From assembly GCA_050331735.1 (NCBI GenBank), contig JBHJGN010000039.1:39624-103623 (forward strand): 64,000 nt of DNA, given 5' to 3'. This stretch comes from Cyanophyceae cyanobacterium. Lineage in GTDB: Bacteria; Cyanobacteriota; Cyanobacteriia; Cyanobacteriales; JBHJGN01. The notes beneath the pieces are model-generated. The model was given only the letters and a program-made list of their open reading frames with translations, did not search any database and was not told where the DNA came from. The translations under genes were made by a program, and so were the position numbers. Of the stretch, positions 7,858-52,127 are shown one piece after another. The stretch's first letter is position 1, and each line of letters starts with the position of its first letter.

Positions 7858-7892
7858 ATCCTCACAAATTCCTCATATTCTTAGCTTAATCT
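7858..7892 (+). promoter_or_regulatory. L-box-like direct repeat + -10 (site A), towards the di-heme pair
   Basis: ATCCTCA-CAAA-TTCCTCA, 11 nt, TAATCT. Confidence 0.75.
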
Positions 7893-8052
7893 GTGTTGTT
7901 ATTGAGCATTGCTGAAAGAAGCCCGCTCGAAATTGATAATTACTAACAAACTTACAATTAACTGCCCTGATCGTTTGCTAGCCAGCCACACCGTCATCGA
8001 AATCAAAGATGATTTTGTCTAATCTTAATATCGTTTAGTCTCCGGATCTAAA

Positions 8053-9552
8053 ATGAGTGACGCGCACAAGAGCGATCGCCAACCCAAATTCTTAGGGATG
8101 ACTCGCAAAATACTTGTTACTGCCGCCGTCTTCCTGACCGTCATTGCCCTGTGGCTGACCTGGCCTTTTTTGACCAATCGCGGCCCCGTTTACTACGCCG
8201 ACATCGACGAACATTTTCGCTACGGCTCAGTCGGAGGCGAAAATACAGACGGGATTCCCTACTGGTTATGGAAAGCTTTGCCCGTGGTGTTCGCGGATAA
8301 GCTGCCTGGGGAGGGCTGGACCTCCCTAGGCTTCATTCAAGAACCAGACCACGAGCTACCGATTGGCTTTGCTAAATCGACCCGTACTATTGGTCTGGAT
8401 GTGGTGACCCAGAACTGCGCCACCTGCCACGTCAGTACGCTGCGGGAAACCCCCGAGTCGCAGCCAGCGATCGTCTCGACGATGCCCGCCAATACCGTCA
8501 ATCTTCAGGCTTATATTCAGTTTCTCATTAATGCCGCCATTGACGAACGTTTCACCGCCAGCCAGATTATGCCCACCATCGCCGCGATGGGAGCAAATCT
8601 GAATCCGCTGGAGAAGCTAGTTTACAAGTATTTTGCCATTCCCCAAACGCGGGATGCCCTGCTGCGGGAACGGCACGACCTGACGTTTATGGAAAAGCAG
8701 TCTTCCTATGGACCGGGGCGAGTGGATACGTTTACAACGTATAAAACTCGTCGCTTCGGGTTTCCCGCCGACGAACTGCCTCCAGAAGAACTCAACGGCA
8801 TTGCCGATTTTCCCAGCATCTGGAATCAGGAACCTCGGCAGGGTCTATATCTGCACTGGGACGGCAACAATAACGACCCGGATGAGCGCAATCGCACCGC
8901 CGCCCTAGCGCTCGTCGCTCCGGCAACCCTGGATTTCGATTCGCTGTTTCGCCTCCAGGAATGGTTAAATGAGGTGCCGCCGCCCGAATACCCCTACAGG
9001 ATTGATGCCGCCCTCGCGGCGCGGGGCCAGCCCATTTTTGAGGCTCAGTGCGCAAGCTGTCACGATATTCTCCATCGTCCCGACAAATCGGATTTAGAAA
9101 CCGTCACCCCCATCGACCAAATCGGAACAGACCGAGGACGGTTAGATTCCTACACCTACGATCTGGCCTCTAATCAATATTTAATCTTTAGCGGGATCGA
9201 GTATCGAGGAGAAGATAAGCGCTTTCGGCACTACCGCAAAACCAATGGCTACGCCAACGCCCCTTTAGATGGAATTTGGCTGCGTGCCCCCTATTTGCAC
9301 AATGGGTCTGTGCCCACCCTCCGAGACTTACTGGAGAAACCTGAGGCTCGCCCAAAAACTTTTTTCCGCGGCTATGACGTATACGACAAAAGAAATGTTG
9401 GCTTTATCAGTACTGTCCCCGCAGAGGACGGCAAGCCATTTTTCAAATATGACACCTCCTTGCCAGGTAACGGCAATGGCGGTCATCTGTTTGGAACCGA
9501 CCTCTCCGCCGAGGATAAAGAGGCTCTCCTTGAATACCTCAAAACGCAGTAG
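8053..9552 (+). CDS. Membrane-anchored di-heme c-type cytochrome, RoxA/CcP-MauG-like (copy 1)
   Basis: N-terminal TM helix; CATCH and CASCH; LDGIWLRAPYLHNGSVPTL; GNGNGGH. Confidence 0.85.
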   Translation: MSDAHKSDRQPKFLGMTRKILVTAAVFLTVIALWLTWPFLTNRGPVYYADIDEHFRYGSVGGENTDGIPYWLWKALPVVFADKLPGEGWTSLGFIQEPDHELPIGFAKSTRTIGLDVVTQNCATCHVSTLRETPESQPAIVSTMPANTVNLQAYIQFLINAAIDERFTASQIMPTIAAMGANLNPLEKLVYKYFAIPQTRDALLRERHDLTFMEKQSSYGPGRVDTFTTYKTRRFGFPADELPPEELNGIADFPSIWNQEPRQGLYLHWDGNNNDPDERNRTAALALVAPATLDFDSLFRLQEWLNEVPPPEYPYRIDAALAARGQPIFEAQCASCHDILHRPDKSDLETVTPIDQIGTDRGRLDSYTYDLASNQYLIFSGIEYRGEDKRFRHYRKTNGYANAPLDGIWLRAPYLHNGSVPTLRDLLEKPEARPKTFFRGYDVYDKRNVGFISTVPAEDGKPFFKYDTSLPGNGNGGHLFGTDLSAEDKEALLEYLKTQ

Positions 9553-9582
9553 ACTGCTCGACGCTCGCGCAAAGGTAACGTA

Positions 9583-11055
9583 ATGTTTGTGATTCAGCTT
9601 AAGCTTCGGAAAACCACTCTCATTGCCCTGGTGCTAGCCTTCCTGTTGGCGATCGCCGGGGTGGCCTATTACGGCTGGCAGGGCGTATATCGGCAAAAAC
9701 CGTTGACCGTCTACGAATCTCCCGAAGAGCATTTCAAATACGGCTCCATTGGTACTGAGTCCGTCAGCGGGATTCCGTTTTGGATTTGGGTCGTGTTACC
9801 CCGCCTGTTTCCAGAAAAACTACCGGGTCCGGGTGGCTACACTTCTTTAGGATTGACCTGGGAACCGGGTTACGAAATGCCCGTAGGGTTTACCAAAGAA
9901 ACTATCGGCGTTCCTCGGGTCGGCCTGAACTGTGCCGCCTGCCACGTCGGGACGCTTAGAAACACCGTCACTGAAAGTCCGACCTTTTTATTAGGCGCTC
10001 CCAGCACCACCTTCGACAGTCAGCGCTACGCCCGATTCCTCTTTGACTGCGCCAGCGATCCTCGCTTTAACGCCAACTTCATCCTGCCGGAGATCACCGA
10101 CAATATCCCTCTTTCTCTAGGAGAGAAGTTACTGTACCGCTTCGCCATCATTCCTGCCACCAAGCAAGCGCTGCTCAAACAGCGGGCCGCTTTGGCCTAC
10201 ATCGACAGTCAACCGGATTGGGGTCCAGGACGCACAGACATGAATCCCTTGAAAATAGGGGTCTTGGGTTTACCGAACGATGGTTCTGTTGGCAGTACCG
10301 ACGTGATGGCGGTTTGGAATGAAGCGGCTCATGCAGAATTTTACAAGCATAGCGATGGGTTGACCCCAGACCTACACGAATCGGTGTTGAGCAGTGCCTT
10401 GGGGACGGGAACAACTCTGCAAGCAGTGAATCTGGAGAGCTTGAAACGGGTTGAAAACTGGATGCGTCAGGCTACCCCACCCCCCTACCCTTACCCGATC
10501 GATGCAGACATGGCAGCACGAGGCAAAGTAGTATTTGAAAGTACTTGCGCCACTTGTCATAGTTACAGCGGTGCGCGAACCGGAACGGTGATTCCTCTAA
10601 GCGAAGTGAACACCGATCCTAACCGCGCCAACCACTGGACTCCAGAAGCGGCTGAGGGTTTTCGTCGTTATCCCAACGAAGAATCAGAGCTTTTTGCCAA
10701 CTTTCAGGACACCGATGGCTACACGGCAGTTCCTTTAGATGGGGTTTGGGCGCGATCGCCCTACCTCCATAACGGCTCTGTACCGACTCTAGCGGCATTA
10801 CTGACAGATCCGGCAGACCGTCCGCCGACGTTTTACCGCAGCTTTGACCTGTACGATCCGCAACAGGTCGGGTTCATCTCCAATGGAGAGGAGGCGCACA
10901 AATCCGGCTATCTGTTTGATACGCGCATAGTCGGCAACAGCAACCAGGGGCATTCCTACGGCACTGAACTTGAAGCTCGCGATCAGCAAGCCCTAATTGA
11001 GTATCTAAAAACTTTATCGGCCATCGGAAGAAAGCGCATCCCTAGCAAAGGCTAA
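9583..11055 (+). CDS. Membrane-anchored di-heme c-type cytochrome, RoxA/CcP-MauG-like (copy 2)
   Basis: N-terminal TM helix; CAACH and CATCH; LDGVWARSPYLHNGSVPTL; GNSNQGH; colinear with copy 1. Confidence 0.85.
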   Translation: MFVIQLKLRKTTLIALVLAFLLAIAGVAYYGWQGVYRQKPLTVYESPEEHFKYGSIGTESVSGIPFWIWVVLPRLFPEKLPGPGGYTSLGLTWEPGYEMPVGFTKETIGVPRVGLNCAACHVGTLRNTVTESPTFLLGAPSTTFDSQRYARFLFDCASDPRFNANFILPEITDNIPLSLGEKLLYRFAIIPATKQALLKQRAALAYIDSQPDWGPGRTDMNPLKIGVLGLPNDGSVGSTDVMAVWNEAAHAEFYKHSDGLTPDLHESVLSSALGTGTTLQAVNLESLKRVENWMRQATPPPYPYPIDADMAARGKVVFESTCATCHSYSGARTGTVIPLSEVNTDPNRANHWTPEAAEGFRRYPNEESELFANFQDTDGYTAVPLDGVWARSPYLHNGSVPTLAALLTDPADRPPTFYRSFDLYDPQQVGFISNGEEAHKSGYLFDTRIVGNSNQGHSYGTELEARDQQALIEYLKTLSAIGRKRIPSKG

Positions 11056-11107
11056 ACCCTTGACCCTTTCCCCCTTCCCCTTTCCCCTGACTAGCTACTG
11101 TATTACT

Positions 11108-18777: not shown

Positions 18778-21700
18778 ATGAACTCAATTGCTGGCTACAG
18801 GCTGACTGAAGTGCTTCTGGAGAGTCCGACAACTCTTGTCTATCGTGCTTTCGGAGAGTCGCAGCCAACCACAGCAATTGTTAAAATTCTCAAGCCCGAT
18901 CGCTCGACAGCCCCACTTGCTCGCCTGCGACAGGAATATCAACTCCTGCAATCTTTAGCCATAGAAGGCGTGGTGCACCCCCTCGCTTTCGCAAGATATC
19001 AAAACAGTTGGGCCTTAATTTTATCAGATCCAGGAGGACAACCGCTGAAGCAGGCGATCGCCGCCTCGCTTTCCTTGGCCAGCTTTTTGCACATCGCGAT
19101 GCAGCTCACGGCAACGCTGGCGCAGCTTCATCAGCGCAATATTATTCATCAAAGTATTAACGCCCACACGATTTTATGCGATCGCCACCATCATCAGGTG
19201 GCAATGATTGATTTTAGTAGAGCATTACGCTCTCAAGATCGGGTTGTCAAACCTCCTGAGCCCCTCGAAGGTCTGGCTTATCTGTCTCCAGAACAAACCG
19301 GGAGAATGAATCGTGCGATTGACTATCGCACCGACTTTTATTCTTTGGGAATTACCTTTTATGAAATGCTCACTGGCCAGCTTCCTTTTCAAGCAAAGGA
19401 TGCTTTGGAACTGATTCACTGCCATCTGGCGCAAACCCCCGTCTCGCCCCACAAAATTAACGACCAGATTCCTCAAGTCGTTTCAGATATTGTCGTCAAG
19501 CTATTAGCTAAAACGGCTGAAGCAAGATATCAAAGCGCCCTCGGGTTAAAAGCCGACCTAGAAAACTGCCTACACCAACTGCAAACCAAGGGAAAAATCG
19601 AGAATCTTAAGATTGGTCAGCTCGATTTATCCAGTCAATTCAACATTGTTCAGAAGCTTTATGGACGCGAACCAGAAGTGGCTACCCTCCTCGCTGCCTT
19701 TGAGCGCGTTAGCCTGGGTGATTCTGAAATGCTGCTGGTCAGCGGTTATTCAGGCGTTGGCAAATCTTCTTTAGTTAATGAGGTCCGTCAATCTATCCTT
19801 CGCCAGCAGGGGTATTTTATTGCTGGCAAGTTTGACCAGTTCAAGCGCAACATTCCCTACTCCGCTATTATTCAAGCTTTTCAAGAACTAATCCGCAATC
19901 TCCTCACCCAAAGCCAGGAAAGCATAGCCGTATGGCAAGCCAAGTTATTAGGGGCTCTTGGGGCTAACGCTCAAGTAATTATTGATGTCATTCCAGAGCT
20001 AGAGCTGATTATCGGCTCTCAGCCCCCGGTTCCTCCCTTGGGACCAACGGAAAACCAAAATCGATTCAATCGTCTGTTTCAACAGTTTATTCGTCTGTTT
20101 TGCCGCCGAGAACAGCCACTGGTCCTGTTTTTAGATGATTTGCAGTGGGCCGATTCTGCTTCTCTCAAGCTCATTCAATTGTTAATCAGCGATCGTCGCC
20201 GTCACTTACTCATTTTAGGCGCGTATCGAGATAACGAAGTCAACGCCACCCATCCGCTGATGTTAACTTTGTCAGAGCTAAAAAATCCTCAGCATATTCA
20301 CCAGATAGTTCTTCAGCCATTGCAGGTCGAGCACGTTAATCAATTAATTAGCGAGACCCTCCACACTCCTCCTCAACAAACCCAACCGTTAGCTGAACTG
20401 CTGTTTGAAAAAACTCAGGGGAATCCCTTCTTCTTAACTCAGTTGCTTAAGTCCCTTCATCGAGAAAAGTTAACCTTCAATTTCAGTAAAGGTTGCTGGC
20501 AGTGGAATATTGAACAGCTTAAAACGATTAACATCACCGATAATGTCGTTGCTTTAATGATTGAGCGGCTGCAACAGTTATCTCTAAAGACGCAGCATCT
20601 TTTAAAGCTAGCCGCCTGTATTGGTAACAAATTTACCCTAGACATTTTAAGCGTCGTTTATCAGCAACCTTTGTTAGCTTCAGCAGAATTAGGGGAAGCT
20701 TTGCAGTCTGGCTTGATTGCTACCGTAGACGAAGCCTATAACCTGCTGGCGATTGGCGGTCCCCAAACGGAATTATTAGCGAGCCGAGTAACCTACAAAT
20801 TTTTACACGACCGAGTGCAGCAAGCAGCCTATTCTCTGATTGCCGATTCTCAGAAGAAAGCCACTCACCTAAAAATTGGGCAACTGTTGCTGACAAATAC
20901 GGCTCCTGAAGAACGAGCCGAAAACATATTTGCTTTAGTTAATCACCTCAATTACGGCATTGAGCTATTGAAGACTGACGCCGAAAAGCTGGAGCTAGCT
21001 GAGCTAAACCTGATCGCCGGACGGAAAGCCAAAGCAGCGACCGCCTATGAACCAGCGCTTCGCTACCTGAGCGTTGGGTTAGAGTGTTTGCCAGTCGATA
21101 GCTGGCAGCATCAGTACGAGTTGACCTTGGCACTTCACGAATCAGCCATTGAATCAGCCTACCTCAGCGGCAACTTTGAGCAAATGGAGCAATGGGCAGC
21201 GGTCATTCGGCAACAGGCTAAATCCCCGGTCGATCAGCTCAAAGTTTTTGAATTCAAAATTCAAGCCTGCATGGCGCAGGTCAAACAACGAGAAGCGGTC
21301 AAAATTGGGCTACAAGGATTGGAGTTGCTGGGCCTGAAGCTGCCAGAATCGCCCGCTCCTGCCGATATTGAGCAAGCTCTCAGCCAAACAGCAACTCATC
21401 TGGCGGGGAAAAATATTGCCGATTTAGTCGATTATCCCCCGATGACGGAGACAGATAAGCTCGCCGCCATGCAGATGCTCATTAATCTGGGGTCTCCAAC
21501 TTATCAAGCTGCCCCAGCCCTGTTTCCGCTGGTAATCTGCAAACAAGTCAATTTATCGCTGACCGATGGGAATTCCCCTTTTTCTGCCTATAGCTATGCC
21601 TGCTACGGCGTGATTCTCAATGGAATCGTCGAGGATAGTGAATCGGCTTATCAATTTGGTCAGTTAGCCCTCAGTTTAGTCGAACGGTTCAATGCCTTAG

Positions 21701-24696
21701 CGCTTCAGACCAGCGTATTCTTCGTAACGGGGGCGTGTACAATGCATGGCAAAGTGCATGCGCGGGAAACACTCCCCCTCCTCCAGGAGGGTTACTCCAG
21801 TGGCGTTAACAACGGTCACTTTGAATATGGGGGCTATGCCGCCATGCAGAAATGCCAGTATTCCTACTACATTGGTCAGGAACTGCCTAAGCTGAAGCGA
21901 GCAATAGCCACGACTAGTCAGGCTCTCGCTCAGCTCAAGCAAGAAAATGCCTGGAGCTGGAATCAGATCTTTCATCAGTCTGTGCTGAATCTGCTTCAGC
22001 CCGGTGAGGCTCCCTGCTGTTTACAAGGGGAAGCCTACAATGAAGCACAAGCACTACCGCTGCTGCAAGCAGCTAACGATCGCACCGGACTGCACTACTT
22101 TTACTTAAATAAACTCATCCTCTGTTATTTGTTTCAGGACTATCAACAGGCTTTAGCCAATGCCGCTCAAGCCGAGCAGTATTTGGATGGAGTGAAAGCA
22201 TTTCTGGCTGTTCCCGTATTTTATTTCTATGACTCGCTCGCTCAGCTAGCCTGCTATTCATCCGCCTCCCCGACGCATCAGGCAGACATCCTCAGCAAGG
22301 TGCAAACGAACCAGGAAAAAATGCACAGATGGGCGGTTCATGCTCCCATGAATTTTCAGCATAAGTACGAACTGATAGAAGCGGAAAGGGCACGGGTACT
22401 AGGACAATACTGGCAAGCAATGGAATCCTATGACCGCGCCATTGCTCTTGCTAAAGAGCAGGGCTATATCCAAGAAGAAGCCCTAGCCGCGGAACTAGCC
22501 GCCCAATTTTATATTTCCCTCGGCAAAGACCGGTTTGCCAAAGAGTATTTAAGTGAAGCCTATGATGGTTATGTCCGTTGGGGGGCAACGGCCAAAGTCC
22601 GACATTTAGAACGGTATTCCGATCCGTTGGCTGGGGTACGGCAGCGAGAGACTCAAACCCACCCTGCTCCGGCAAGCGGAAATCATTCCCAAGCCCTCGA
22701 CTTAGCCACCGTCATCAAAGCATCTCAGGTGCTTTCTAGCGAAATTGTTTTGCATAAACTGGTCACGAAGCTGATGCAGATCGTCCTCGAAAATGCGGGG
22801 GCGCAAGCGGGACTTTTGCTCCTCGAAAAGGGGGGACTGCAAATTGAAGCCTATGGTGCTGTTAGTGACGAGGGCATTGCCGTCGAGCCGCCTCGCGAAT
22901 CAGGCTCTAGCAACCAGCCTCCGTATCCAGCCACTGTTGTTAATTATGTGGCGAGAACCCACAAGGCAGTTGTGCTCAACGATGCCTCAAGAGAGGAGAC
23001 TTTTAACGATGACTATATCAGTTGCTATCGTCCCCAATCGATTTTGTGCTTGCCCATCTTGCATCAAGGGAAGCTGACGGGAATTCTGTATCTCGAAAAT
23101 AACTTGACGGTGGGAGCCTTTACGCCAGAGCGATTGGAAGTGTTGCAGTTACTTGCCTCTCAAGCGGCGATCGCCATTGAAAATGCTCGCCTCTATGCTT
23201 CCCAAGAAGAGGTCAATCTTACCTTAGAAGCGAAAGTCACCGAACGAACGCGGCAGCTTCAGGAGAAAAACCAGCATCTCCAGCAGGAGATCCGCGAACG
23301 GCAGCGGGCCGAAGCGGCAGCAGAGTCTGCTAACCGCGCCAAAAGCCAATTCTTAGCCAACATGAGTCACGAACTCCGCACCCCCCTCAACGGGATCTTA
23401 GGATATGCCCAAATTCTCCAGAAAGAACCGGTGACTGAGCGGCAACAGCATGGTTTGGGCGTCATTCACCGCTGTGGCGAACACCTGCTCACTCTGATCA
23501 ACGATGTCCTAGACCTGTCTAAAATCGAAGCCCAAAAAATGGAGCTGCATCTTAGTGATGTGCTCCTGCCCTACTTTTTACAAACGATTGTTGAAGTGTG
23601 CCGTATTCGGGCCCAACAAAAGGGCATTGAGCTAATTTACACTCCCCTAGCTTCGCTACCGACTGTGATTCGTGCCGATGAAAAACGGTTACGGCAGGTG
23701 TTGATGAACCTACTGAGCAATGCCATCAAGTTTACCGACACAGGCAGCGTCACCTTCACCGTAGACCCTCGCCAGGGACTGAGATTTGCGGTCCAAGATA
23801 CGGGCATTGGCATTGCTGCCGACCAACGAGAGGCCATTTTTGAGCCCTTTCAGCAAGTCGGGGAACGCAGCCACCAAACAGAAGGAACGGGATTAGGACT
23901 CGCCATTAGCCGTCAACTCGTGCATCTAATGGGCGGCGAACTCCAGGTCAATAGCATTCTCGGGCAAGGCAGCGTCTTCGAGTTTGCGCTTGAGCTAACC
24001 GCAGTTAAGCAGGGGCACGAGCAGCTCACCCCGATCCAGAAGATTACGGGCTTCCAGGGACCGAAAAAAATCCTGGTGATCGATGACCAGTGGGCCAATC
24101 GCTCTGTTTTGGTTCATCTGCTGGAGCCTTTGGGGTTTGAGATGGCTGAAGCCGTTAACGGCTTGGAGGGGGTGGCTAAGGCCCGGGAGTTTCGCCCTGA
24201 GCTGATTTTGATAGATTTAATCATGCCAGAGATGGATGGCTTTGAAACCACTCAGCAGTTAAGAAAGATTCCAGAACTAGCAGGGGTGGTCATTATTGCC
24301 ATTTCAGCAAGCGTATTCGATGGCGATCGCGAGCACAGTCTCCAGGTCGGCTGCAATGATTTTCTCCCCAAACCATTGCGGGAAGAGGCTCTGCTCGAAA
24401 AACTCCAGCTCCATCTCGGACTAGAATGGATCTACGCAGAGGACCGGGCTACCGAGATTAGACTTGCTGCTGATGCCCCGCTGATCGTTCCTCCCGCCGA
24501 GGAAATTGCGGCTCTACTCGATTTAGCGATGAGAGGCGACCTCAGAGGCATGATCGCGCGAGTCGATCGACTCGAGGAGCACGAGCGGCACTGGGAGCCG
24601 TTCGCAGCTCATCTGCGTCAGCTAGCTAAAGAGTTTAAGGGCAAACAAATTCGAGAATTGTTGAAACGATCTCTAAGAGGCAGTGATGAGGGTTGA
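18778..24696 (+). CDS. Ser/Thr-kinase-like + AAA ATPase + GAF + histidine kinase + receiver hybrid sensor
   Basis: YLSPEQTGRMN; Walker A GYSGVGKS; LDDLQWAD; GAF YLENN; H-box MSHELRTPL; NAIKFT; GTGLGL; C-terminal REC. Confidence 0.95.
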   Translation: MNSIAGYRLTEVLLESPTTLVYRAFGESQPTTAIVKILKPDRSTAPLARLRQEYQLLQSLAIEGVVHPLAFARYQNSWALILSDPGGQPLKQAIAASLSLASFLHIAMQLTATLAQLHQRNIIHQSINAHTILCDRHHHQVAMIDFSRALRSQDRVVKPPEPLEGLAYLSPEQTGRMNRAIDYRTDFYSLGITFYEMLTGQLPFQAKDALELIHCHLAQTPVSPHKINDQIPQVVSDIVVKLLAKTAEARYQSALGLKADLENCLHQLQTKGKIENLKIGQLDLSSQFNIVQKLYGREPEVATLLAAFERVSLGDSEMLLVSGYSGVGKSSLVNEVRQSILRQQGYFIAGKFDQFKRNIPYSAIIQAFQELIRNLLTQSQESIAVWQAKLLGALGANAQVIIDVIPELELIIGSQPPVPPLGPTENQNRFNRLFQQFIRLFCRREQPLVLFLDDLQWADSASLKLIQLLISDRRRHLLILGAYRDNEVNATHPLMLTLSELKNPQHIHQIVLQPLQVEHVNQLISETLHTPPQQTQPLAELLFEKTQGNPFFLTQLLKSLHREKLTFNFSKGCWQWNIEQLKTINITDNVVALMIERLQQLSLKTQHLLKLAACIGNKFTLDILSVVYQQPLLASAELGEALQSGLIATVDEAYNLLAIGGPQTELLASRVTYKFLHDRVQQAAYSLIADSQKKATHLKIGQLLLTNTAPEERAENIFALVNHLNYGIELLKTDAEKLELAELNLIAGRKAKAATAYEPALRYLSVGLECLPVDSWQHQYELTLALHESAIESAYLSGNFEQMEQWAAVIRQQAKSPVDQLKVFEFKIQACMAQVKQREAVKIGLQGLELLGLKLPESPAPADIEQALSQTATHLAGKNIADLVDYPPMTETDKLAAMQMLINLGSPTYQAAPALFPLVICKQVNLSLTDGNSPFSAYSYACYGVILNGIVEDSESAYQFGQLALSLVERFNALALQTSVFFVTGACTMHGKVHARETLPLLQEGYSSGVNNGHFEYGGYAAMQKCQYSYYIGQELPKLKRAIATTSQALAQLKQENAWSWNQIFHQSVLNLLQPGEAPCCLQGEAYNEAQALPLLQAANDRTGLHYFYLNKLILCYLFQDYQQALANAAQAEQYLDGVKAFLAVPVFYFYDSLAQLACYSSASPTHQADILSKVQTNQEKMHRWAVHAPMNFQHKYELIEAERARVLGQYWQAMESYDRAIALAKEQGYIQEEALAAELAAQFYISLGKDRFAKEYLSEAYDGYVRWGATAKVRHLERYSDPLAGVRQRETQTHPAPASGNHSQALDLATVIKASQVLSSEIVLHKLVTKLMQIVLENAGAQAGLLLLEKGGLQIEAYGAVSDEGIAVEPPRESGSSNQPPYPATVVNYVARTHKAVVLNDASREETFNDDYISCYRPQSILCLPILHQGKLTGILYLENNLTVGAFTPERLEVLQLLASQAAIAIENARLYASQEEVNLTLEAKVTERTRQLQEKNQHLQQEIRERQRAEAAAESANRAKSQFLANMSHELRTPLNGILGYAQILQKEPVTERQQHGLGVIHRCGEHLLTLINDVLDLSKIEAQKMELHLSDVLLPYFLQTIVEVCRIRAQQKGIELIYTPLASLPTVIRADEKRLRQVLMNLLSNAIKFTDTGSVTFTVDPRQGLRFAVQDTGIGIAADQREAIFEPFQQVGERSHQTEGTGLGLAISRQLVHLMGGELQVNSILGQGSVFEFALELTAVKQGHEQLTPIQKITGFQGPKKILVIDDQWANRSVLVHLLEPLGFEMAEAVNGLEGVAKAREFRPELILIDLIMPEMDGFETTQQLRKIPELAGVVIIAISASVFDGDREHSLQVGCNDFLPKPLREEALLEKLQLHLGLEWIYAEDRATEIRLAADAPLIVPPAEEIAALLDLAMRGDLRGMIARVDRLEEHERHWEPFAAHLRQLAKEFKGKQIRELLKRSLRGSDEG

Positions 24697-35292: not shown

Positions 35293-35327
35293 ATCCTCAC
35301 AAGTTCCTCAAAATTCATGGCTAAGAT
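35293..35327 (+). promoter_or_regulatory. L-box-like direct repeat + -10 (site C), towards pseudo-RcaF
   Basis: ATCCTCA-CAAG-TTCCTCA, 11 nt, TAAGAT. Confidence 0.78.
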
Positions 35328-37322: not shown

Positions 37323-37799
37323 GAGCTTTTAAACAGAAAATAATCGGAAGTGTGATGCTGCTTGCTGTCACACAACGCGAGCACCGCTGAACTAATTCGC
37401 TTCTATTCTTGAAATTACGGGGAGAAAATGAAGAACTGCTGAAGATTGTCCTGTTGTTTGTTTTCTGTGATTGTCAGCCGTCGTTCGAGAGTCGGCAGTT
37501 TGAGCGTTTTTTCTGCCTTCCTCCTGATTCTGGCTCGGTTTTCCTTTACAGAAGTTCAAAATGATTAAAATCATTTAATAAACAGAGACAATCGTAAAGA
37601 GTATTACTAGAGTAGGAACATCTTGACGAAGTAACGGCAACCTGAAACGGCAAATTCAGGACGAGGGCAGGGACAATTGGTTCAGCCAACCGTTTTTTGA
37701 GGCAGAAACGGGCACTTGAGTTTTAGATGACTCTGATTTACGACGGAGGCATCTGAAACCGTTGGTCAAGCAGCACAGAGCAAGAAGCATGAGGCTGCC

Positions 37800-40103
37800 A
37801 TGAAAATTTTGTTAGTAGAAGATGATGAGCTGGTCGTTCAAGAACTGGGTTCAGCTCTCCAAAACCAGCACTATGCTGTTGACGTAGCGAAAGACGGACA
37901 GGAGGGGTGGGAACTGGGGTCAGCCGGAACCTACGATTTAGTGTTGCTGGATGTGATGCTTCCAAAAATGAACGGCATCGAGCTGTGTCAGCAGTTGCGA
38001 TCGCAGGGAGTCCAAACTCCGATTCTGTTGATGACGGCTCAGGACACCAACACCGACGAGATTATTGGGTTGGATGCCGGGGCGGATGACTACGTGACCA
38101 AGCCTTTGAATTTTCGAGTGTTGCTGGCCCGCATCCGGGCTTTACTGCGTCGCGGACAGACCGAATTGGCTCCGTTACTGACCTGGGGCGATCTCTGCCT
38201 CGATCCGAGTACCTGTGATGTTACCTACCGCAATCAGCTACTCCACCTCACTCCCAAGGAGTATGGCTTGCTAGAGCTGTTTCTGCGCAATCCCCAGCGG
38301 GTTTATAGCCGCAGCGTCATTCTCGACCATCTGTGGACCCTGGAGGCATCGCCGGGAGAGGAAACCGTTACCGCTCACATCAAGGGGCTGCGGCAAAAAT
38401 TAAAGGCCGCAGGCATCGCAGATCCCATCGAAACCGTCTACGGCATTGGCTACCGCCTTAAGCCCACCCCGCAGGCGGCAGCTTCTGCGCAGCATCAAGC
38501 CCTGCCGCTCAGTTCCCAAGAGGCGCAGCAGCAGGTCCAAGCAAAAGTTTCGACAGTTTGGGAACGAGTGCAGGAGAAGCTGAGTCAACGGGTGACCGCC
38601 ATCGAAGAGGCAACGACTGTTCTCCTCAAATCTCGGCTGAGCCGCCAGCAGCGTCTTCAGGCTCAGCAGGCAGCCCATAAACTCGCGGGGTCTCTGGGGA
38701 TGTTTGACCTCGACGAAGGCTCGCGGCTCGCGCGAGAAATTGAGCAGTTATTGCAACAGCGGTCCCTCAGCAACCCCCAAAGGCGGCAGCTCACTCACTT
38801 AATTGGAGCTCTACGACAAGAGCTACAGCGGACGACGAGCACGCTGAGCGCTGAATCTCCGCCCTCTCCAGCACTGCTGATCGTTAGTGAAGACCTGAGC
38901 TTTGCCCAGGAATTAGCAGCCGTCGCTCAAGGGAAGGGGTTAGACTCTCAGATCCTGTCTGATCTCGTTGAAACGAGAGCCTGGGTGGCCGTTCATCCTC
39001 CTGAAGTCGTGTTCCTCGACCTTGGCGGTGAGAGCGAATTCAACGCTGCTCAACTCGCCTTACTCGAAGAGCTGAAAGCATCAACGCCTCCCGTTCCGGT
39101 GCTCGTTTCTGGTCCCAACGGCATCCTCAACCGCGTCCAGGTTGCTCGCCTGGGCGGACGACGGTTTTTACCGAAGCCCGTCTCATCGGCTCAGGTGCTA
39201 GAAACGATCGCCCAAGTGCTCCAGCAAACGCGCTACCATACAGCCACCATTGCCGTCGTAGACGACGATCCGCAGATTCTGCTGGCCCTGCGGCACCTGC
39301 TCCAGCCGTGGGGCATCAAGCTGATCGCTCTTGATGCGCTGCAATTTTGGGAGCGGTTAGGCAGCATACCGCTCGATCTGCTGATTCTGGACGTAGAAAT
39401 GCCCCAGATCAGCGGACTGGAACTGTGCCAGCTCGTGCGGAACGACCCGCGCTGGACCGATCTGCCCGTGCTGTTTCTGACGGCTCATACCGATGCCCAA
39501 ACGATGCAGCAAGTGTTTGCGGCGGGAGCCGACGACTTTGTGACGAAACCGATCGTCGGTCCTGAATTAGTCACTCGGATTCTCAATCGGCTCGAGCGCT
39601 CGTCCTTAGTTCGCCGCCAAACTCAGCTCGATCCGTTAACGGGTCTGGCTAATTATCGCTGCTCCCATCAGGAACTCACGCGGCTGCTGGACATGGCCCA
39701 TCGTGATCGCCAACCGCTATGCTTTAGCGTCCTGCACCTCGAGCGCCTCCAGCAGATCAACGAGGAGCACGGCCACGGGCTTGCCGACCAAGCCCTCAGA
39801 CAGTTCGGTTACTTGCTGCGGCAGACCTTTCAAAGCGAAGACCTGGTGGCTCGCTGGGGGGGAGCAGAGTTTGTCATCGGTATGTACGCGATGACAGAAC
39901 GCGATGGTGTCCAGCGTCTCTTAGACGTGAAGAACAAGCTCTCTCAAGTGTCTCTCCCGCTCACCTTTAAGGCGGGAGTGGTGCAGTATCCGCAGGACGG
40001 CCCTGACTTGCAGTCCCTGTATCACCAGGCCTTCACCCGGCTGCAGCACCAAGCTCCAGCCAGCAACCCCATTCGTACTCGGCCCCCGTCAAATTCCCCA
40101 TGA
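37800..40103 (+). CDS. RcaC-like response regulator (REC-wHTH-Hpt-REC-REC) with degenerate GGDEF domain
   Basis: LLDVMLP; LTPKEYGLL...IETVYGIGYRL; AAHKLAGSLG; ILDVEMP; DPLTGLAN...ARWGGAEF. Confidence 0.92.
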   Translation: MKILLVEDDELVVQELGSALQNQHYAVDVAKDGQEGWELGSAGTYDLVLLDVMLPKMNGIELCQQLRSQGVQTPILLMTAQDTNTDEIIGLDAGADDYVTKPLNFRVLLARIRALLRRGQTELAPLLTWGDLCLDPSTCDVTYRNQLLHLTPKEYGLLELFLRNPQRVYSRSVILDHLWTLEASPGEETVTAHIKGLRQKLKAAGIADPIETVYGIGYRLKPTPQAAASAQHQALPLSSQEAQQQVQAKVSTVWERVQEKLSQRVTAIEEATTVLLKSRLSRQQRLQAQQAAHKLAGSLGMFDLDEGSRLAREIEQLLQQRSLSNPQRRQLTHLIGALRQELQRTTSTLSAESPPSPALLIVSEDLSFAQELAAVAQGKGLDSQILSDLVETRAWVAVHPPEVVFLDLGGESEFNAAQLALLEELKASTPPVPVLVSGPNGILNRVQVARLGGRRFLPKPVSSAQVLETIAQVLQQTRYHTATIAVVDDDPQILLALRHLLQPWGIKLIALDALQFWERLGSIPLDLLILDVEMPQISGLELCQLVRNDPRWTDLPVLFLTAHTDAQTMQQVFAAGADDFVTKPIVGPELVTRILNRLERSSLVRRQTQLDPLTGLANYRCSHQELTRLLDMAHRDRQPLCFSVLHLERLQQINEEHGHGLADQALRQFGYLLRQTFQSEDLVARWGGAEFVIGMYAMTERDGVQRLLDVKNKLSQVSLPLTFKAGVVQYPQDGPDLQSLYHQAFTRLQHQAPASNPIRTRPPSNSP

Positions 40104-43100
40104 TGCCTGACCCTAGCAACGAACCAGCCAGACTCAAAGCCCTCCACCGCTATCGCGTTTTAGATACCCTGCCGGAAACCGCCTTTGACGATCTCACCCG
40201 GCTGGCCGCCTCCATCTGCCAGACGCCGATCGCCTTAGTGAGCTTAGTAGACAAAGAGCGACAGTGGTTTAAATCGAAAGTGGGCCTGGAGGCAGCGGAA
40301 ACGCCCCGCGAAGTCGCTTTTTGTGCTCAGGCGATCACGAACCCCAGAGAAGCCTGTGTTGTTCCAGATGCCCGGGAGGAGCAGCGTTTTGCCACCAACC
40401 CGCTTGTTCTCGACGGACCGAAAATTCGCTTTTATGCCGGAGTTCCCCTGGTCACTCCGGAAGGCTATGCCTTGGGAACTCTCTGCGTCATCGATACCAA
40501 ACCGCGCACCATTGCCGCTGAGCAGCTCAGCGCCCTCAAGGCTCTAGCGCGCCAGGTGATGACTCAACTGGAACTGCGCCGCCAGACCTTGGAAGCCGAA
40601 GCTGCTCGCGCTCAAGTCACGAACATTTTAGAGAGCATCACGGATGGTTTTTTTGCCCTCGATACCCACTGGCGGTTTACCTACATTAACCGTCAGGCAG
40701 AGTCACTGCTCCAGAGAAGTCGGGAAGAACTCGTGGGCCAAAATATTTGGGAGATCTTTCCAGAAGCCGTCGAAACCAACTTTTACCGGGAGTACCAGCG
40801 GGCGATCGCTGAGGGGGTGAGCGTTGACTTTGCGGAATTTTATCCGCCCCTCAACACCTGGTATGAAGTTCACGCCTATCCTTCTTCAGAGGGACTGTCG
40901 GTCTATTTTCAGGACGTCACTGAGCGCAAACAGATGGAGTTAGCGATGCGGCAGCAGTCGGCAGCGCTGGCAAACTTCAGTACTCATCTTAAGCATCTCC
41001 ATCGCATTAATATCACCACCTACGCCAGTTTTGAGGCTCTCTTCGCCGACAGTTTAGCAACCGGATGTACGATTCTGGGGCTGTCAACGGGAATTATTAG
41101 CCAAATTACCGACCAGACCTATACAATCCGGGCGGTGAGGTCGCCGCTAGCTCTGTCAGCGGGAGCAGAATTTGAGCTACAGAACACCTACTGCGCTGCC
41201 GTAGTCAGAGAACGCCGCACGATCGCCTATACGCAGGTGGGCACCAGTGACCTGCAAAGGCATCCGGTATACCACACTCTCGGCTTAGAAGCCTACATCG
41301 GGGCCCCAATTTGGGTCAACGGGGAAATCTACGGAACGCTGAATTTCTCGTCAACAGAGCCAAAATCCAGCGGTTTTGAGCCCCACGAACGGGAATTGAT
41401 TGAACTCATGGCCCAAAGCATTGGTCGGTTTATTGCGGCAGACCAAGCAGACACCGAGCGTCAGCAGATGATCGCCGAACTCCGACGAACCAATCAGCGC
41501 GTCCAGCTATTTGCCGATGTAGCGCTCAAAATCCGCCGCTCCCTGAAGCTTGAGGAGATATTGGAGACGACGGTGACCGAGGTACAGCAGTTTTTGAGGT
41601 GCGATCGCGTGATTATTTTTCAGCTCCAAAGAAACGGCAGTGGCAGAGTGGTCAGAGAAGCGTTGGTGCCCGGATGTCCGGCCATTCTCGGTCAGGATAT
41701 CGACGACCCCTGCTTTCGCAGCGAATACATGGACAAGTATCGCCAAGGACGCACCAGCGCGATCACCGATCTCGAGCAGGCCGACCTGGAAGAGTGCCAC
41801 AAAGAACTGCTTCAGCAGTTTGCCACCCGCGCCAATTTAGTCGTGCCGATTCTGCACCATGAAGAGCTGTGGGGCTTACTGATCGCTCATCAGTGCTACC
41901 GCCCTCGGCAGTGGAGAGATTCCGAAATTGAGTTTCTCCAGCTCCTCGCCAACCAGCTTGGCATTGCTCTCGGGCAAAGTCAGCTCGTGGTCGCTCTCCA
42001 GGAGAGCGAACAGCGATTTCGCCTGCTAGCCGATAGTGCCCCGGTCCTGCTGTGGATGACGGGAACCGAGCACCAAGCAACGTTTTTCAATCAAACCTGG
42101 CTCAACTTTAGCGGACAACCTCTGGCTCAAGCGCTGGCCAGCGGTTGGGCAGCAGGCATTCATCCCGACGACCGCGAGCGCTGCCAGGAGACGTATTCAG
42201 CCGCTGTTGAGCGCCACGAGAGCTTTACCCTAGAGTATCGCCGCCAGTCCAACCGAGAGTATCGCTGGGTGCTAGATACAGGAGTGCCGCGACTGACCCC
42301 AGACGGCAGCTTTGCCGGCTACATCGGTTCCTGTATCGATATTAGCGATCGCCGCGAAGTGGAACAGCTCAAAGATGAGTTTGTGTCGGTTGTCAGTCAC
42401 GAACTACGGACCCCCCTCACGTCGATTGGTGGCGCCTTAGATTTGCTCGCTAGCGGAGTGCTGCACACCCAACCCCAGCGGGCACAAAGGATGCTGCAAA
42501 TTGCTGTCAACAATACAGATCGGCTGGTGCGCTTGATCAACGACATTCTCGATATTGAACGAATCGAGTCCGGCAAAGTGATGATGAGTAAACAGGGTGG
42601 CAACGTCTCGGACCTGCTCGATAGCGCCGTCGCCACCGTGAGCGAGCTAGCCGAGAATGCGGGAGTGACCCTCCAGGTGTCTACGCTCTCGGCGCGACTA
42701 TGGGTCGATCCAGACCGCATCATTCAGGTACTGACCAACTTACTCAGTAACGCGATCAAATTTTCCGACCCGGGCTCAACCGTATGGCTAACGGCCTCCC
42801 GTGTCTGTGGCTCGACGGCTAACCGCTCGCCAGCAGAGAGCGAACCCATGATTTTGTTTCAAGTCTGCGACCAAGGACGAGGCATTCCCGCCGATCAGCT
42901 CGAAACCATTTTTGGTCGCTTTCAGCAGGTGGATGCGTCTGATTCGCGCCGGCGGGGCGGCACCGGCTTAGGACTCGCGATTTGTCGCAGTATTGTGCAG
43001 CACCACGACGGTCAGATCTGGGCAGAAAGTACCTTCGGAGAGGGCAGCACCTTTTTCTTTACTCTGCCGGTTTTACAGGAAGAAGCGCCGGCAAGCGTCA

Positions 43101-43861
43101 ATTCAGGCCCGCTAGTGCTCGTTTGCGATGACGACCCTTCCTTACGAACTGTGGTGCAAACCCTGCTCGAACAGCAAAATTACCAAGTCGTTGCCGTGGC
43201 CTCGGGCCGAGAAGCGATCGCCCAGGCTACCGCGCTGACCCCCGATGTGATTTTGCTAAATTTGCTCATGCCGGAAATGAACGGCTGGGAAACCCTGTCT
43301 GTTCTCAAAGCCCAGTCAGAAACCGCCTCAATTCCTGTGGTAATTTTTAGTGGGCTGATGCCCGATGCCAGAGAGCAGCATCCAGAAATCAGCGATTGGA
43401 TCGTGAAGCCAGCCGAGCAACAGCGCCTCTGTCAGGCGTTAGAGGCGCTGCTCCAGCCTCCGCAAAATCTCAAGGTGCTGATCGTCGAAGACGACCCCGA
43501 TTTAGCTCAGGTGCTGGTGGCCCTGTTCGACCGTCACGGCATTCAGACTCTCCGGGCGCGAACGGGACGGGAAGCACTTCAGCTCAGTCAACGCTTTATG
43601 CCCAACTTGCTGGTGCTTGACCTAAGCTTGCCAGACTACGATGGCTTTGCGGTGGTCGATTGGCTCCGGCAGCACAATCGCCTGTGGCGACTTCCGCTTG
43701 TGGTTTACACCGCGAAAGATTTAGAGGCCTCTGAACGAGAGCGCCTACAGCTCGGACACACGCTCTTTTTCACCAAAGGACGCATCACCCCTGAAGAATT
43801 TGAACAGCGAGTGATTCGCTTACTGGGCCGACTGATGAGCAAGCGAGGAGAAGACCGATGA
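40100..43861 (+). CDS. Hybrid histidine kinase GAF-PAS-GAF-DXCF cyanobacteriochrome GAF-PAS-HisKA-HATPase-REC-REC
   Basis: DDPCF and ECH cysteines; RANLVVP, LWGLLIAH; VSHELRTPL; first REC has Asp->Asn (LLNLLMP); ATGA overlap. Confidence 0.93.
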   Translation: MMPDPSNEPARLKALHRYRVLDTLPETAFDDLTRLAASICQTPIALVSLVDKERQWFKSKVGLEAAETPREVAFCAQAITNPREACVVPDAREEQRFATNPLVLDGPKIRFYAGVPLVTPEGYALGTLCVIDTKPRTIAAEQLSALKALARQVMTQLELRRQTLEAEAARAQVTNILESITDGFFALDTHWRFTYINRQAESLLQRSREELVGQNIWEIFPEAVETNFYREYQRAIAEGVSVDFAEFYPPLNTWYEVHAYPSSEGLSVYFQDVTERKQMELAMRQQSAALANFSTHLKHLHRINITTYASFEALFADSLATGCTILGLSTGIISQITDQTYTIRAVRSPLALSAGAEFELQNTYCAAVVRERRTIAYTQVGTSDLQRHPVYHTLGLEAYIGAPIWVNGEIYGTLNFSSTEPKSSGFEPHERELIELMAQSIGRFIAADQADTERQQMIAELRRTNQRVQLFADVALKIRRSLKLEEILETTVTEVQQFLRCDRVIIFQLQRNGSGRVVREALVPGCPAILGQDIDDPCFRSEYMDKYRQGRTSAITDLEQADLEECHKELLQQFATRANLVVPILHHEELWGLLIAHQCYRPRQWRDSEIEFLQLLANQLGIALGQSQLVVALQESEQRFRLLADSAPVLLWMTGTEHQATFFNQTWLNFSGQPLAQALASGWAAGIHPDDRERCQETYSAAVERHESFTLEYRRQSNREYRWVLDTGVPRLTPDGSFAGYIGSCIDISDRREVEQLKDEFVSVVSHELRTPLTSIGGALDLLASGVLHTQPQRAQRMLQIAVNNTDRLVRLINDILDIERIESGKVMMSKQGGNVSDLLDSAVATVSELAENAGVTLQVSTLSARLWVDPDRIIQVLTNLLSNAIKFSDPGSTVWLTASRVCGSTANRSPAESEPMILFQVCDQGRGIPADQLETIFGRFQQVDASDSRRRGGTGLGLAICRSIVQHHDGQIWAESTFGEGSTFFFTLPVLQEEAPASVNSGPLVLVCDDDPSLRTVVQTLLEQQNYQVVAVASGREAIAQATALTPDVILLNLLMPEMNGWETLSVLKAQSETASIPVVIFSGLMPDAREQHPEISDWIVKPAEQQRLCQALEALLQPPQNLKVLIVEDDPDLAQVLVALFDRHGIQTLRARTGREALQLSQRFMPNLLVLDLSLPDYDGFAVVDWLRQHNRLWRLPLVVYTAKDLEASERERLQLGHTLFFTKGRITPEEFEQRVIRLLGRLMSKRGEDR

Positions 43862-44253
43862 CGAAGCGCATCTTAGTCATTGATGATGATGAAGACATTC
43901 GCGAGGTGGCTCAGGTCGCTCTAGAAGTCGTTGGTGGGTGGGAGGTACTGGTCACGAGTTCCGGTGCGGCAGGGCTGCGTTTAGCCGCCGCTCAGCAGCC
44001 GGATGCGATTCTTCTAGACGTAATGATGCCCGATCTTGACGGCATTGCCACCTTTCAACGGCTCCAGAGCAATCCAGCAACGCAGCAGATTCCCGTCATT
44101 TTACTGACAGCTAAAGTGCAGCCTGCCGATCAGCGTAAATTTGCTCAGCTAGACGTGGTAGCGACCATTGCTAAACCGTTCAAGACCATGCTACTCGCTC
44201 ACCAGGTCGCGAAGATACTGGGCTGGAGCGACGCTGAATCCTTGTCACGGTGA
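43858..44253 (+). CDS. Single-domain response regulator, RcaF-like
   Basis: IDDD, LLDVMMP, LLTAK, AKPF; ATGA overlap with the kinase. Confidence 0.93.
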   Translation: MTKRILVIDDDEDIREVAQVALEVVGGWEVLVTSSGAAGLRLAAAQQPDAILLDVMMPDLDGIATFQRLQSNPATQQIPVILLTAKVQPADQRKFAQLDVVATIAKPFKTMLLAHQVAKILGWSDAESLSR

Positions 44254-48126: not shown

Positions 48127-48161
48127 AGGATAGGAAAAAAGTTTGAGGAACTTGTGAGGAA
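48127..48161 (-). promoter_or_regulatory. L-box-like direct repeat + -10 (site D), towards lon operon
   Basis: Minus strand TTCCTCA-CAAG-TTCCTCA, 11 nt, TATCCT. Confidence 0.78.
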
Positions 48162-48439: not shown

Positions 48440-48474
48440 TTACTCACAACTTCCTCATATTCTTTTTCTAGGCT
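48440..48474 (+). promoter_or_regulatory. L-box-like direct repeat + -10 (site E), towards heme peroxidase
   Basis: TTACTCA-CAAC-TTCCTCA, 11 nt, TAGGCT. Confidence 0.7.
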
Positions 48475-48794: not shown

Positions 48795-48839
48795 ACACCT
48801 AATCCTTTCGCTAGCAAGGGTACTCTTGCTATCTCAGCC

Positions 48840-51419: not shown

Positions 51420-51594
51420 CTTTAGTAGAGTGGCGCTTAGCTTGTGGCAACGCCGTTACATCATCTCCTAATGTAGATGCTACACAAGTAGAGGAAATTG
51501 AAACCTTTCCCCTTTTCCCCGACTACGCATCGATCATTTCACTTTCTAGAATTGGGCGATGCTGATTCTTAGTTCTTCATAAAGATACAAAAGT

Positions 51595-51619
51595 AAAAGC
51601 CTTGCCTAGCAAGGCTTTT
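51595..51619. terminator. Bidirectional intrinsic terminator between peroxidase and hsp20
   Basis: AAAAGCCTTGC-CTA-GCAAGGCTTTT between convergent genes. Confidence 0.75.
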
Positions 51620-51703
51620 GCCGCATCCAATTGAGTTTGTTTTCCCATATTATTCGCTTAAGCTTAACCCGAACAAACTGTTCTCAATTAAGCGGATTGA
51701 TGA

Positions 51704-52027
51704 TTAATTTTGCTCTCGCTTAGGAATGATAACGATGAGGACACCGTTGATTAATTCTGCCTGTGCTTGCTCGGGTTGAATGGGGATCTCGATCGGAACA
51801 TGACACTGAAGACGGCCATAATGAAACTCTGAAGGAATAATTTCTTTCTCCGTTGGTTTGAATTGAGGATGAACTCCAGTAATAGATACCGAATCGGAAG
51901 TGACGTGAACATTCAAGTGCTTGCGCTCAACCCCGGGTACTTCTGCCTTGAGAATAAGAGTAGTATCAGTTTCGTTAAATTCAATTGCTGGACACCAGGT
52001 AGGCTCGTGTGTCATAACTACTGCCAT
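51704..52027 (-). CDS. Short Hsp20/alpha-crystallin protein
   Basis: WCPAIE..ET....ILKAEVPG...SEFHYG...AELINGVL. Confidence 0.88.
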   Translation of the reverse strand: MAVVMTHEPTWCPAIEFNETDTTLILKAEVPGVERKHLNVHVTSDSVSITGVHPQFKPTEKEIIPSEFHYGRLQCHVPIEIPIQPEQAQAELINGVLIVIIPKREQN

Positions 52028-52092
52028 AAAAGCTGCTTTCCTTGCTTGTGGTAATCGCCAGACATTAATTTGACTTGCTTGGCTTTCCTTTT

Positions 52093-52127
52093 AAAGTAAA
52101 GAAAGATTTTGAGGAACTTGTGAGGAA
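52093..52127 (-). promoter_or_regulatory. L-box-like direct repeat + -10 (site F), towards hsp20
   Basis: Minus strand TTCCTCA-CAAG-TTCCTCA, 11 nt, TACTTT. Confidence 0.8.

Follow-up and report, generated by a model that had tools for sequence, protein, structure and literature searches.

A tandem 11-bp repeat as the probable activator operator of a hydrogenase and fermentation regulon in cyanobacteria

Introduction

The pho box of Escherichia coli PhoB consists of two 7-bp direct repeats with a 4-bp spacer, which replace the −35 element and lie about 10–11 nucleotides (nt) before the −10 element. The same 7-4-7 geometry at the −35 position is found in the L box (TTGCACA-N4-TTGCACA) of the Rca system of Fremyella diplosiphon, which comprises a REC-wHTH-HPt-REC regulator (RcaC), an RcaF-like single receiver and an RcaE-type GAF domain. 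Here we describe an element of this geometry in a 64,000-nt stretch of cyanobacterial DNA (the window), which spans C39:39624-103623 of a 5.57-Mb, 99-contig assembly labelled G000 (GCA_050331735.1). The element, hereafter the box, is a pair of 11-bp direct repeats with the core TTCCTCA. We put at about 0.66 the probability that it is the activator operator of a hydrogenase and fermentation regulon of approximately 31 promoters, with RcaC-type regulators as its likeliest binders.

The box resembles the pho box in its 7-4-7 repeat with an 11-bp period, which stands in place of a −35 element, and a winged-helix response regulator would be expected to bind it as a head-to-tail dimer. It differs in sequence and in its cyanobacterial host, the regulon concerns fermentation and hydrogenase rather than phosphate, and the candidate regulators are four-domain relay proteins instead of simple REC-wHTH proteins. 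All of the Rca components named above have counterparts here, and by their predicted domains the analogy extends beyond the regulator to an RcaE-type photosensor and an RcaF-type receiver. However, the repeat reads TTCCTCA instead of TTGCACA, a difference at two of seven positions, and the targets are hydrogenase, fermentation and stress genes rather than phycobiliprotein and linker operons. The kinase is also of another build: it has 1778 amino acids (aa), with CBS domains and numerous PAS domains. One of the regulators carries a C-terminal GGDEF domain, and regulators are fused to kinases in other lineages.

A more distant comparison is with DosR (DevR) of Mycobacterium tuberculosis, which is of the NarL/LuxR type, has a palindromic site and works with haem-GAF kinases. 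In both cases the gene set includes several universal stress proteins (USPs), alpha-crystallin/Hsp20 and CBS proteins, a nitroreductase, phosphofructokinase and ferredoxin-linked enzymes, which in the DosR case are co-induced as respiration or oxygen fails. The regulator class, site type and kinases all differ; this would be an analogy of function only, not homology.

The nearest described operator is the H box of the OmpR-type factor Hrr1 from Nostoc flagelliforme, a pair of 11-nt direct repeats AGGAATTTACM; Hrr1 is reported to target sigB1, cpeR1 and wspA, to be mostly confined to Nostoc and to be linked to RcaF and dark rehydration (PMC13079394). The two elements share paired 11-nt direct repeats, a TTCCT core (on the complementary strand of the H box) and an OmpR-type factor, but the two bases after TTCCT in the H box are unlike the near-invariant CA of the box described here. 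Regulators already known for hox and nifJ in unicellular cyanobacteria are cyAbrB1/2, LexA, SigE and RpaA, with ChlR for low oxygen, mostly from Synechocystis; the accessible part of the review that covers them names no OmpR/RcaC-type regulator for either (PMC13421787). They act on the same targets (hoxEFUYH and nifJ) and raise the same question of microoxic or dark induction, but none is of the OmpR/RcaC type and none uses this box. Our search of the openly accessible literature found no description of the box or of an RcaC-type hox regulator, and 13–15-mers of the box, on either strand, occurred in unrelated papers only.

A promoter element with fixed geometry

The original prediction, made from the window alone, had described six intergenic 7-4-7 repeats, each followed after 11 nt by a TANNNT hexamer. 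All six are present at the positions given, with the hexamers given. The exact pattern WTCCTCA-N4-TTCCTCA matched four times in the window (7858+, 35293+, 48144− and 52110−) and never in 100 dinucleotide shuffles. Allowing up to two mismatches to TTCCTCA-N4-TTCCTCA raised the count to six, with 29682− and 48440+ as the new sites; the 100 shuffles averaged 0.62 such matches and had at most 3, never six. Read in the orientation of the site, a TANNNT hexamer lay exactly 11 nt past the 18-mer at all six.

To score the whole genome, we used a 22-position matrix built from 19 seed sites and limited to the two 11-bp repeats, which left the −10 hexamer as an independent test. At 20 bits or more, the matrix found 31 sites, as compared with none in a reversed/complemented control genome; at 18 bits or more, the numbers were 35 and 2. 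The 31 sites fell on six of the 99 contigs (C9, 11; C39, 6; C64, 6; C15, 4; C5, 2; C32, 2). Thirty were outside any open reading frame (ORF) of at least 100 aa, and the single site inside an ORF was in the 5′ end, probably mis-called, of an hsp20 ORF. A same-strand ORF started within 600 nt downstream of 29 sites. TANNNT lay exactly 11 nt past the 18-mer in 25 of 31 cases, against an intergenic background of 1.9% per position, and the A of the hexamer (position 31) was present in every site. The repeat consensus is TTCCTCACAAG TTCCTCAAAWT, two 11-bp direct repeats whose halves are equally conserved across the 31 sites; the CA after TTCCT is near-invariant (30/31). A T-rich tract occupies the gap between the box and the −10 hexamer, and beyond about 35 nt the flanks show no conservation.

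An alternative is that these are scattered copies of a mobile or filler repeat without any regulatory role. Their clustering on 6/99 contigs, and the location of the corresponding gene set of Acaryochloris marina on a conjugative plasmid, would fit such an origin. The placement statistics already contradict it: intergenic position, gene-facing orientation and a −10 hexamer at one distance prevail to the extent given above, rather than the random placement and orientation that the original prediction had named as its own undoing. The lack of conservation in the flanks and the presence of the same 18-mer before the same gene families in different cyanobacterial orders also speak against it, and we regard a dispersed repeat as barely credible. 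We are nearly certain that the box is a real, conserved promoter element.

At the −35 location (positions 7–12, 17 nt before the −10 hexamer), the consensus reads ACAAGT and agrees with TTGACA at a single position of the six. Promoters without a recognizable −35 hexamer would be weak without a helper, and a fixed 11-nt distance combined with a single orientation is what activation from the −35 position requires. Judged by these sequence features, the box is very probably a site for an OmpR-class activator. It overlaps the polymerase-binding region, which would also suit a repressor operator at which the regulator occludes the −35 region and expression follows upon release, and RcaC is described as both activating and repressing according to box position (PMC8256508). 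However, a repressor needs neither the fixed distance to the −10 hexamer nor a single orientation (29/31), and the missing −35 hexamer, with ACAAGT at 17-nt spacing, would leave the promoters weak without a helper; repression is improbable on these grounds. We think it very improbable that the box is an upstream promoter element of a dedicated alternative sigma factor. A sigma-70 family gene does lie within the hox/regulator block of A. marina plasmid pREB4 and has been proposed as a possible controller (PMC8949462), but the tandem 11-bp-period repeat reaches about −42, beyond sigma contacts, both repeats are equally conserved, and no sigma gene was seen in the annotated regulon clusters of G000.

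The name L-box-like, under which the sites were first described, suits their 7-4-7 geometry at −35 and not the L-box letters themselves. In G000, the L box (TTGCACA-N4-TTGCACA) had no match at zero or one mismatch, and the window contained two matches at three mismatches, which is below chance. The genome scan brought up a different 7-4-7 repeat, TTTCACA-N4-TTTCACA, in two intergenic-looking copies (C23:29702 and C56:33316), which may be the box of another OmpR-type regulator.

Genes behind the box

We annotated the genes behind the 25 sites outside the window by Pfam and NCBIfam. On contig C9, boxes precede USP-hoxE-hoxF, hoxU-hoxY, a metallo-beta-lactamase-fold protein, CBS-x-hoxH and hoxW-hypA-hypB, as well as an hsp20 gene followed by an alternate F1Fo ATPase operon, another USP gene, a gene for a protein ending in an IF7A-like domain, and the row x-x-L-lactate dehydrogenase. 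The targets on C64 are pyruvate:ferredoxin oxidoreductase (PFOR) and a row consisting of a DHODH-like gene, phosphofructokinase (pfkA), hypD, x and hypE; those on the remaining contigs are hypF-hypC (C32), x-ftsH (C5), and an hsp20, a YkuD protein and devBC (C15). Three Hsp20 and three USP genes are among the box-preceded genes of this genome.

At the centre of the regulon, therefore, stand the bidirectional hydrogenase and the complete set of its maturation genes, together with PFOR and fermentative carbon flow, and USP, Hsp20, CBS and protease genes are arranged around them. These genes are the equipment for fermentation and survival once photosynthetic oxygen evolution stops. The six promoters in the window, which had been taken to define the regulon, are its stress/proteostasis arm and lie at its periphery; as sites they stand, and the extent of the regulon is larger, at about 31 promoters in the genome. 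Similarly, the original view of a redox/proteostasis regulon rather than a phycobilisome one was right in that it is not a phycobilisome regulon, and the emphasis shifts from redox and proteostasis to hox, hyp, PFOR and fermentation.

Two of the C9 targets deserve separate mention. The ATPase operon (C9:20535-23202) is of the alternate N type, probably Na+-dependent, and follows the box-driven hsp20 on the same strand, beside hox/hyp; the same ATPase is reported to co-vary completely with hox on A. marina plasmid pREB4 (PMC8949462). The IF7A-like protein (C9:41442-41954; 170 aa) matches in its C-terminal domain the glutamine-synthetase inactivating factor IF7A (NF052599, E 1e-24), which hints that nitrogen assimilation is throttled along with the fermentation switch.

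Conservation among cyanobacteria

The 18-mer, with at most one mismatch, was found in 5 of 41 genomes (its own and four relatives, the latter from other families), and its control had no match. Of the 301 genomes sampled from the order, 66 contained the exact 15-mer TCACAAGTTCCTCAA, as compared with two control matches, and the 15-mer was concentrated in some families (14/17 genomes in f7 and 11/17 in f18). Named genomes contained at least 122 stretches with the 15-mer. Among the matches listed, 75 of 80 loci bear cyanobacterial names, including Nostoc, Calothrix, Anabaena, Fischerella, Chlorogloeopsis, Leptolyngbya, Acaryochloris, Chamaesiphon, Pleurocapsa, Xenococcus, Stenomitos, Phormidesmis and others. 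Three loci are titled 'uncultured bacterium', and two are Firmicutes metagenome-assembled genomes (MAGs; L054 and L066) whose sites lack a −10 hexamer and look like chance. Among the same listed matches, a strict TANNNT lay at the same distance from 69 of 102 sites, and by reading, the hexamer began with TA in 92 of 102, many of those without the strict TANNNT being TATAAN.

The genes that follow the box are also conserved, and the same gene families stand behind the same 18-mer in different orders of cyanobacteria. By Pfam names, the first downstream genes, which encode 189 distinct proteins, included USP (20), Hsp20 (17), PFOR (11), hoxW (9), BLH-phosphatase-like (9), PEP synthase (8), a small family of 60–89 aa (8) and pentapeptide proteins (4), and there were single cases of glycogen phosphorylase, phosphofructokinase, an ADP-forming acyl-CoA synthetase type, alternative oxidase, protoglobin and nitroreductase. 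Some of the window's own targets recur in this comparison: its 130-aa protein is found behind sites in G034 and G300, and a homologue of its degenerate receiver behind a site in G043. The di-haem pair and Lon were not seen behind sites among the compared genomes, and the window's peroxidase clustered with an RTX-repeat protein only.

The motif is patchy across families, and the regulon genes, regulators and kinases are physically clustered; the whole module may move horizontally. In a MAG titled as an uncultured bacterium, a 37-bit box precedes an RpaB-like REC-wHTH gene (L114:561-1337, minus strand) that is 79% identical to C63:13439 of G000, a possible cross-link to the RpaB network.

Candidate regulators

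The window was predicted to encode two RcaC-like regulators, and Pfam finds the RcaC domain order in both. Regulator 1 (27124..28944, plus strand; 606 aa) is REC-wHTH(OmpR)-HPt-REC with the recognition helix EEAVRTHIKG, and regulator 2 (37800..40103, plus strand; 767 aa) is REC-wHTH-HPt-REC-GGDEF with the helix EETVTAHIKG. The two are 47% identical.

Genes of this type are repeatedly found next to the box elsewhere. In at least 12 other genomes (G165, G093, G070, G006, G288, G217, G201, G274, G034, G004, G043 and G082), a box lies about 0.2–1.2 kb from an RcaC-type gene, and the distance is about 5 kb in G300 and 9 kb in G033. By a rough expectation from about three sites and three such genes per 6 Mb, far fewer than 1% of genomes should show an adjacency within 2 kb. 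According to Pfam, USP-hoxE-hoxF(-hoxU) is driven from the box in G165 and G006, with the regulator gene divergent from it, and ORF sizes give the same layout in G093 and G070; the G288 box drives a gene row that includes hoxF and hoxU and from which the regulator gene is likewise divergent. In most of the related loci, the regulator gene is followed by a small gene for a lone receiver, and the G034 locus mirrors the window, with an RcaC-type gene, a small protein behind a box, a CBS-PAS-GAF kinase and a receiver.

The GGDEF-bearing architecture of regulator 2 is likewise linked to sites in G217, G201 and G274 and on pREB4, the plasmid, classed as conjugative, that carries the gene set in A. 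marina. In the pREB4 region that we examined (NC_009929.1 125000-174999), the REC-wHTH-HPt-REC-GGDEF gene has a box of 29 bits about 150 nt upstream, hoxW-hypA-hypB is preceded by two boxes (33.8 and 17.8 bits), and weaker boxes stand before glycogen phosphorylase and a nitroreductase. A CP12-domain gene is annotated within the hox cluster of the same plasmid, as the 149405-side neighbour of hoxH.

In several of the hox-linked loci, the regulator is part of a larger protein. At L160 (G165) and L164 (G006), REC-wHTH-HPt-REC is fused to PAS-GAF-PAS-HK-REC, giving chains of 1210–1770 aa, and L161 (G093) and L162 (G070) are alike by ORF size. Such a protein combines a whole phosphorelay and the DNA-binding domain in one chain, divergent from USP-hoxEFU.

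To compare recognition helices, we aligned 20 REC-wHTH regions, a small sample. The helix AVRT(H/Q)IKG is common to regulator 1 and 8 of the 11 site-linked regulators aligned; the other three read AVRTHIKE (G288), AVSTQIKG (a G004 gene) and SVTTHIKD (a G006 gene). The helices differ in three RcaC-type proteins from site-free genomes and in three small G000 paralogues. This alignment places regulator 1 ahead of regulator 2 as the candidate binder. The conserved gene linkage favours RcaC-type regulators as the predicted binders, and we hold it fairly likely that they bind the box. The presence or absence of the RcaC architecture was also compared with the motif profile and proved uninformative, as a homologue is present in 269 of 301 genomes.

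Sensor kinases and receivers

Two multi-sensor kinases accompany the regulators. Sensor kinase 1 (29921..35257, plus strand; 1778 aa; by Pfam, CBS-PAS-GAF-PAS(n)-GAF-PAS-HisKA-HATPase) is encoded between the second and third boxes. The GAF domain that spans its residues 1195–1400 matches the cyanobacteriochrome domain of RcaE (7ckv, E 3e-56; 8k9o, E 3e-61) and keeps the AHQC chromophore cysteine motif, features that identify it, at the level of sequence, as an RcaE-type cyanobacteriochrome photosensor domain. The start of sensor kinase 2 (40100..43861, plus strand) overlaps the end of regulator 2; this protein is a PAS-GAF(x3)-PAS-HK-REC-REC hybrid, one of whose GAF domains is cyanobacteriochrome-like. 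That GAF matches other PDB GAF entries, probably of cyanobacteriochromes, the entry titles being mostly uninformative.

Kinase 2 is followed by an RcaF-like single receiver (43858..44253, plus strand) that has all catalytic residues by Pfam and a residue check. A second receiver-only protein (35637..36023, plus strand) is itself a regulon member and had been labelled a pseudo-RcaF. The label is apt: the acceptor Asp is kept, and the acidic pair, the Thr and the Lys are lost. Upstream of regulator 1, a Ser/Thr-kinase-AAA-GAF-HK-REC protein (18778..24696, plus strand; 1972 aa) heads the same-strand row that ends in this regulator, and a REC-PAS-PAS-HK-REC hybrid kinase (24683..27022, plus strand) directly precedes it.

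A candidate oxygen-sensing domain was found in another lineage. The hox-linked fusion regulator of G165 has, beside HisKA, a PAS domain for which 13 of 16 matches are FixL, DosP and E. coli haem-PAS entries, with the proximal His aligned.

Weighing the assignment

Several observations count against the reading of the box as an operator served by RcaC-type regulators and their kinases. A haem PAS was sought in the window kinases (the whole of 24683-27022, and the last PAS and the PAS at residues ~1064-1200 of 29921-35257) and no match to the FixL haem domain was found; the PAS at residues ~1064-1200 of kinase 1 aligned to the non-haem PAS of DosP only. Oxygen sensing in this genome is thus without direct support. 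Regulator 2 (TVTAHIKG) differs at three recognition-helix positions. An RcaC-architecture homologue (E≤1e-60) is so widespread that the architecture is too common to be diagnostic, and families f12 and f15, which have the 15-mer in 0/17 genomes, have such a homologue in 16/17 and 17/17. One genomic site, C64:12853, faces no gene, and the called start codons lie 160–370 nt from five of the six window promoters.

Linkage, moreover, is no proof of binding in a genome with about 19 OmpR-type regulators, and many motif-positive genomes have no site beside a listed regulator (for example, G017, G153, G207 and G277). Box and regulon could be real while the binder is another OmpR-family protein, such as a small REC-wHTH paralogue of the Hrr1 type, and the RcaC-type genes merely co-travel or feed phosphate. 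Three small G000 paralogues (C38:14969, C71:27035 and C69:2918) are 50–59% identical to regulator 1 over REC-wHTH, and Hrr1 itself is OmpR-type, has a box with the TTCCT core and 11-nt period on the other strand, and is reported to interact with RcaF (PMC13079394). On the other hand, the two bases after TTCCT are CA in 30/31 sites here and KG in the H box, and G000 has no H-box site at four or fewer mismatches of 22; at exactly five mismatches, there are 19 sites, as compared with nine in the control. The adjacency that recurs is with RcaC-type genes, including the 29-bit site upstream of one on pREB4. No site was noted beside the small paralogues, which were only sampled, and in G006 about 23 kb separate the nearest such paralogue from a site. 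We therefore regard a small paralogue as an unlikely binder, though one to be taken seriously, and retain the RcaC-type regulators as the preferred candidates.

The locus in the window

The genes faced by the six window promoters are those that the original prediction had named, and Pfam agrees, finding no family for the 130-aa protein. The first box (7858..7892, plus strand; 31.7 bits; −10 hexamer TAATCT) faces a pair of RoxA-like di-haem cytochrome genes (8053-9552 and 9583-11055; Pfam), and the second (29665..29699, minus strand; 34.1 bits; TATTGT) faces the gene for the 130-aa protein (28960-29352) and is divergent from kinase 1. The third (35293..35327, plus strand; 35.8 bits; TAAGAT) faces the degenerate receiver gene. 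Lon (45330-47810), a pentapeptide protein (44784-45326) and a USP (44289-44756) are faced by the fourth (48127..48161, minus strand; 34.9 bits; TATCCT), and an animal-type haem peroxidase with RTX repeats (48840-51419) by the fifth (48440..48474, plus strand; 29.5 bits; TAGGCT). The sixth (52093..52127, minus strand; 36.0 bits; TACTTT) faces hsp20 (51704-52027). The matrix scan also gave a weak seventh box of 16.1 bits, with a −10 hexamer at the right distance (37425..37446, minus strand).

The leaders between promoter and start codon at the five promoters noted above span 7893-8052, 29353-29664, 35328-35636, 47811-48126 and 48475-48839. They may be regulated 5′ untranslated regions or reflect mis-called starts. 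A scan of the whole window at Rfam gathering thresholds returned a tRNA only (56468-56540, plus strand) and no riboswitch that would account for them, and a search of the five leaders for small ORFs gave none that was convincing.

Two further genes lie next to these promoters. A gene for a CBS-CP12 protein (52350-53024, minus strand), without its own box, adjoins the hsp20 promoter. A LarC-type nickel-insertion gene (6451-7698, minus strand) lies directly upstream of the first box and is divergent from it, which is a possible link to nickel supply for the hydrogenase.

Discussion

We propose that the box is the operator of a transcription activator of the OmpR/PhoB class. Its two 11-bp repeats would cover the region from about −42 to −21 in promoters with a −10 element (TAnnnT) and no −35 hexamer, and a head-to-tail dimer of the regulator would recruit RNA polymerase there, as PhoB does at the pho box, activating rather than repressing. 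The likeliest binders would be regulators of RcaC architecture, that encoded at 27124 ahead of that at 37800, and multi-sensor kinases would feed them, in this order of relay, through an RcaF-like receiver. The kinases would read their inputs through RcaE-type cyanobacteriochrome and CBS domains in this genome and through a FixL-like haem PAS in other lineages, and the signal may be darkness, low oxygen or low energy.

On balance, we favour loss of light and/or oxygen as the physiological trigger. The signal itself could be light colour or darkness; some lineages could also respond to oxygen, and the CBS domains may perhaps report energy state. More speculatively, the box may belong to a phylum-wide, horizontally mobile dark/anoxia island in which one operator and RcaC-type relays read light colour, oxygen and energy. 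Such an island would contain the hydrogenase and its maturation genes, PFOR, glycolytic and fermentation enzymes, the Na+-type ATPase, USPs, Hsp20s and CBS proteins. Rca chromatic acclimation would then be a specialised offshoot of an older and wider family whose main task is to move cyanobacteria between photosynthetic and fermentative lifestyles, and which would be the equivalent of DosR in function. We offer this larger picture tentatively.

The finding bears on how filamentous and mat-forming cyanobacteria induce the bidirectional hydrogenase, PFOR and fermentation when light or oxygen is lacking. It supplies an operator sequence before such genes in many genera, together with candidate regulators nearby and candidate inputs in light colour, oxygen and energy. 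It predicts co-regulation for proteins of unknown function, including small proteins of 60–140 aa and a degenerate receiver, and the box would offer a compact inducible promoter for hydrogen-production engineering. It also suggests that regulators of the RcaC type do far more than control pigments.

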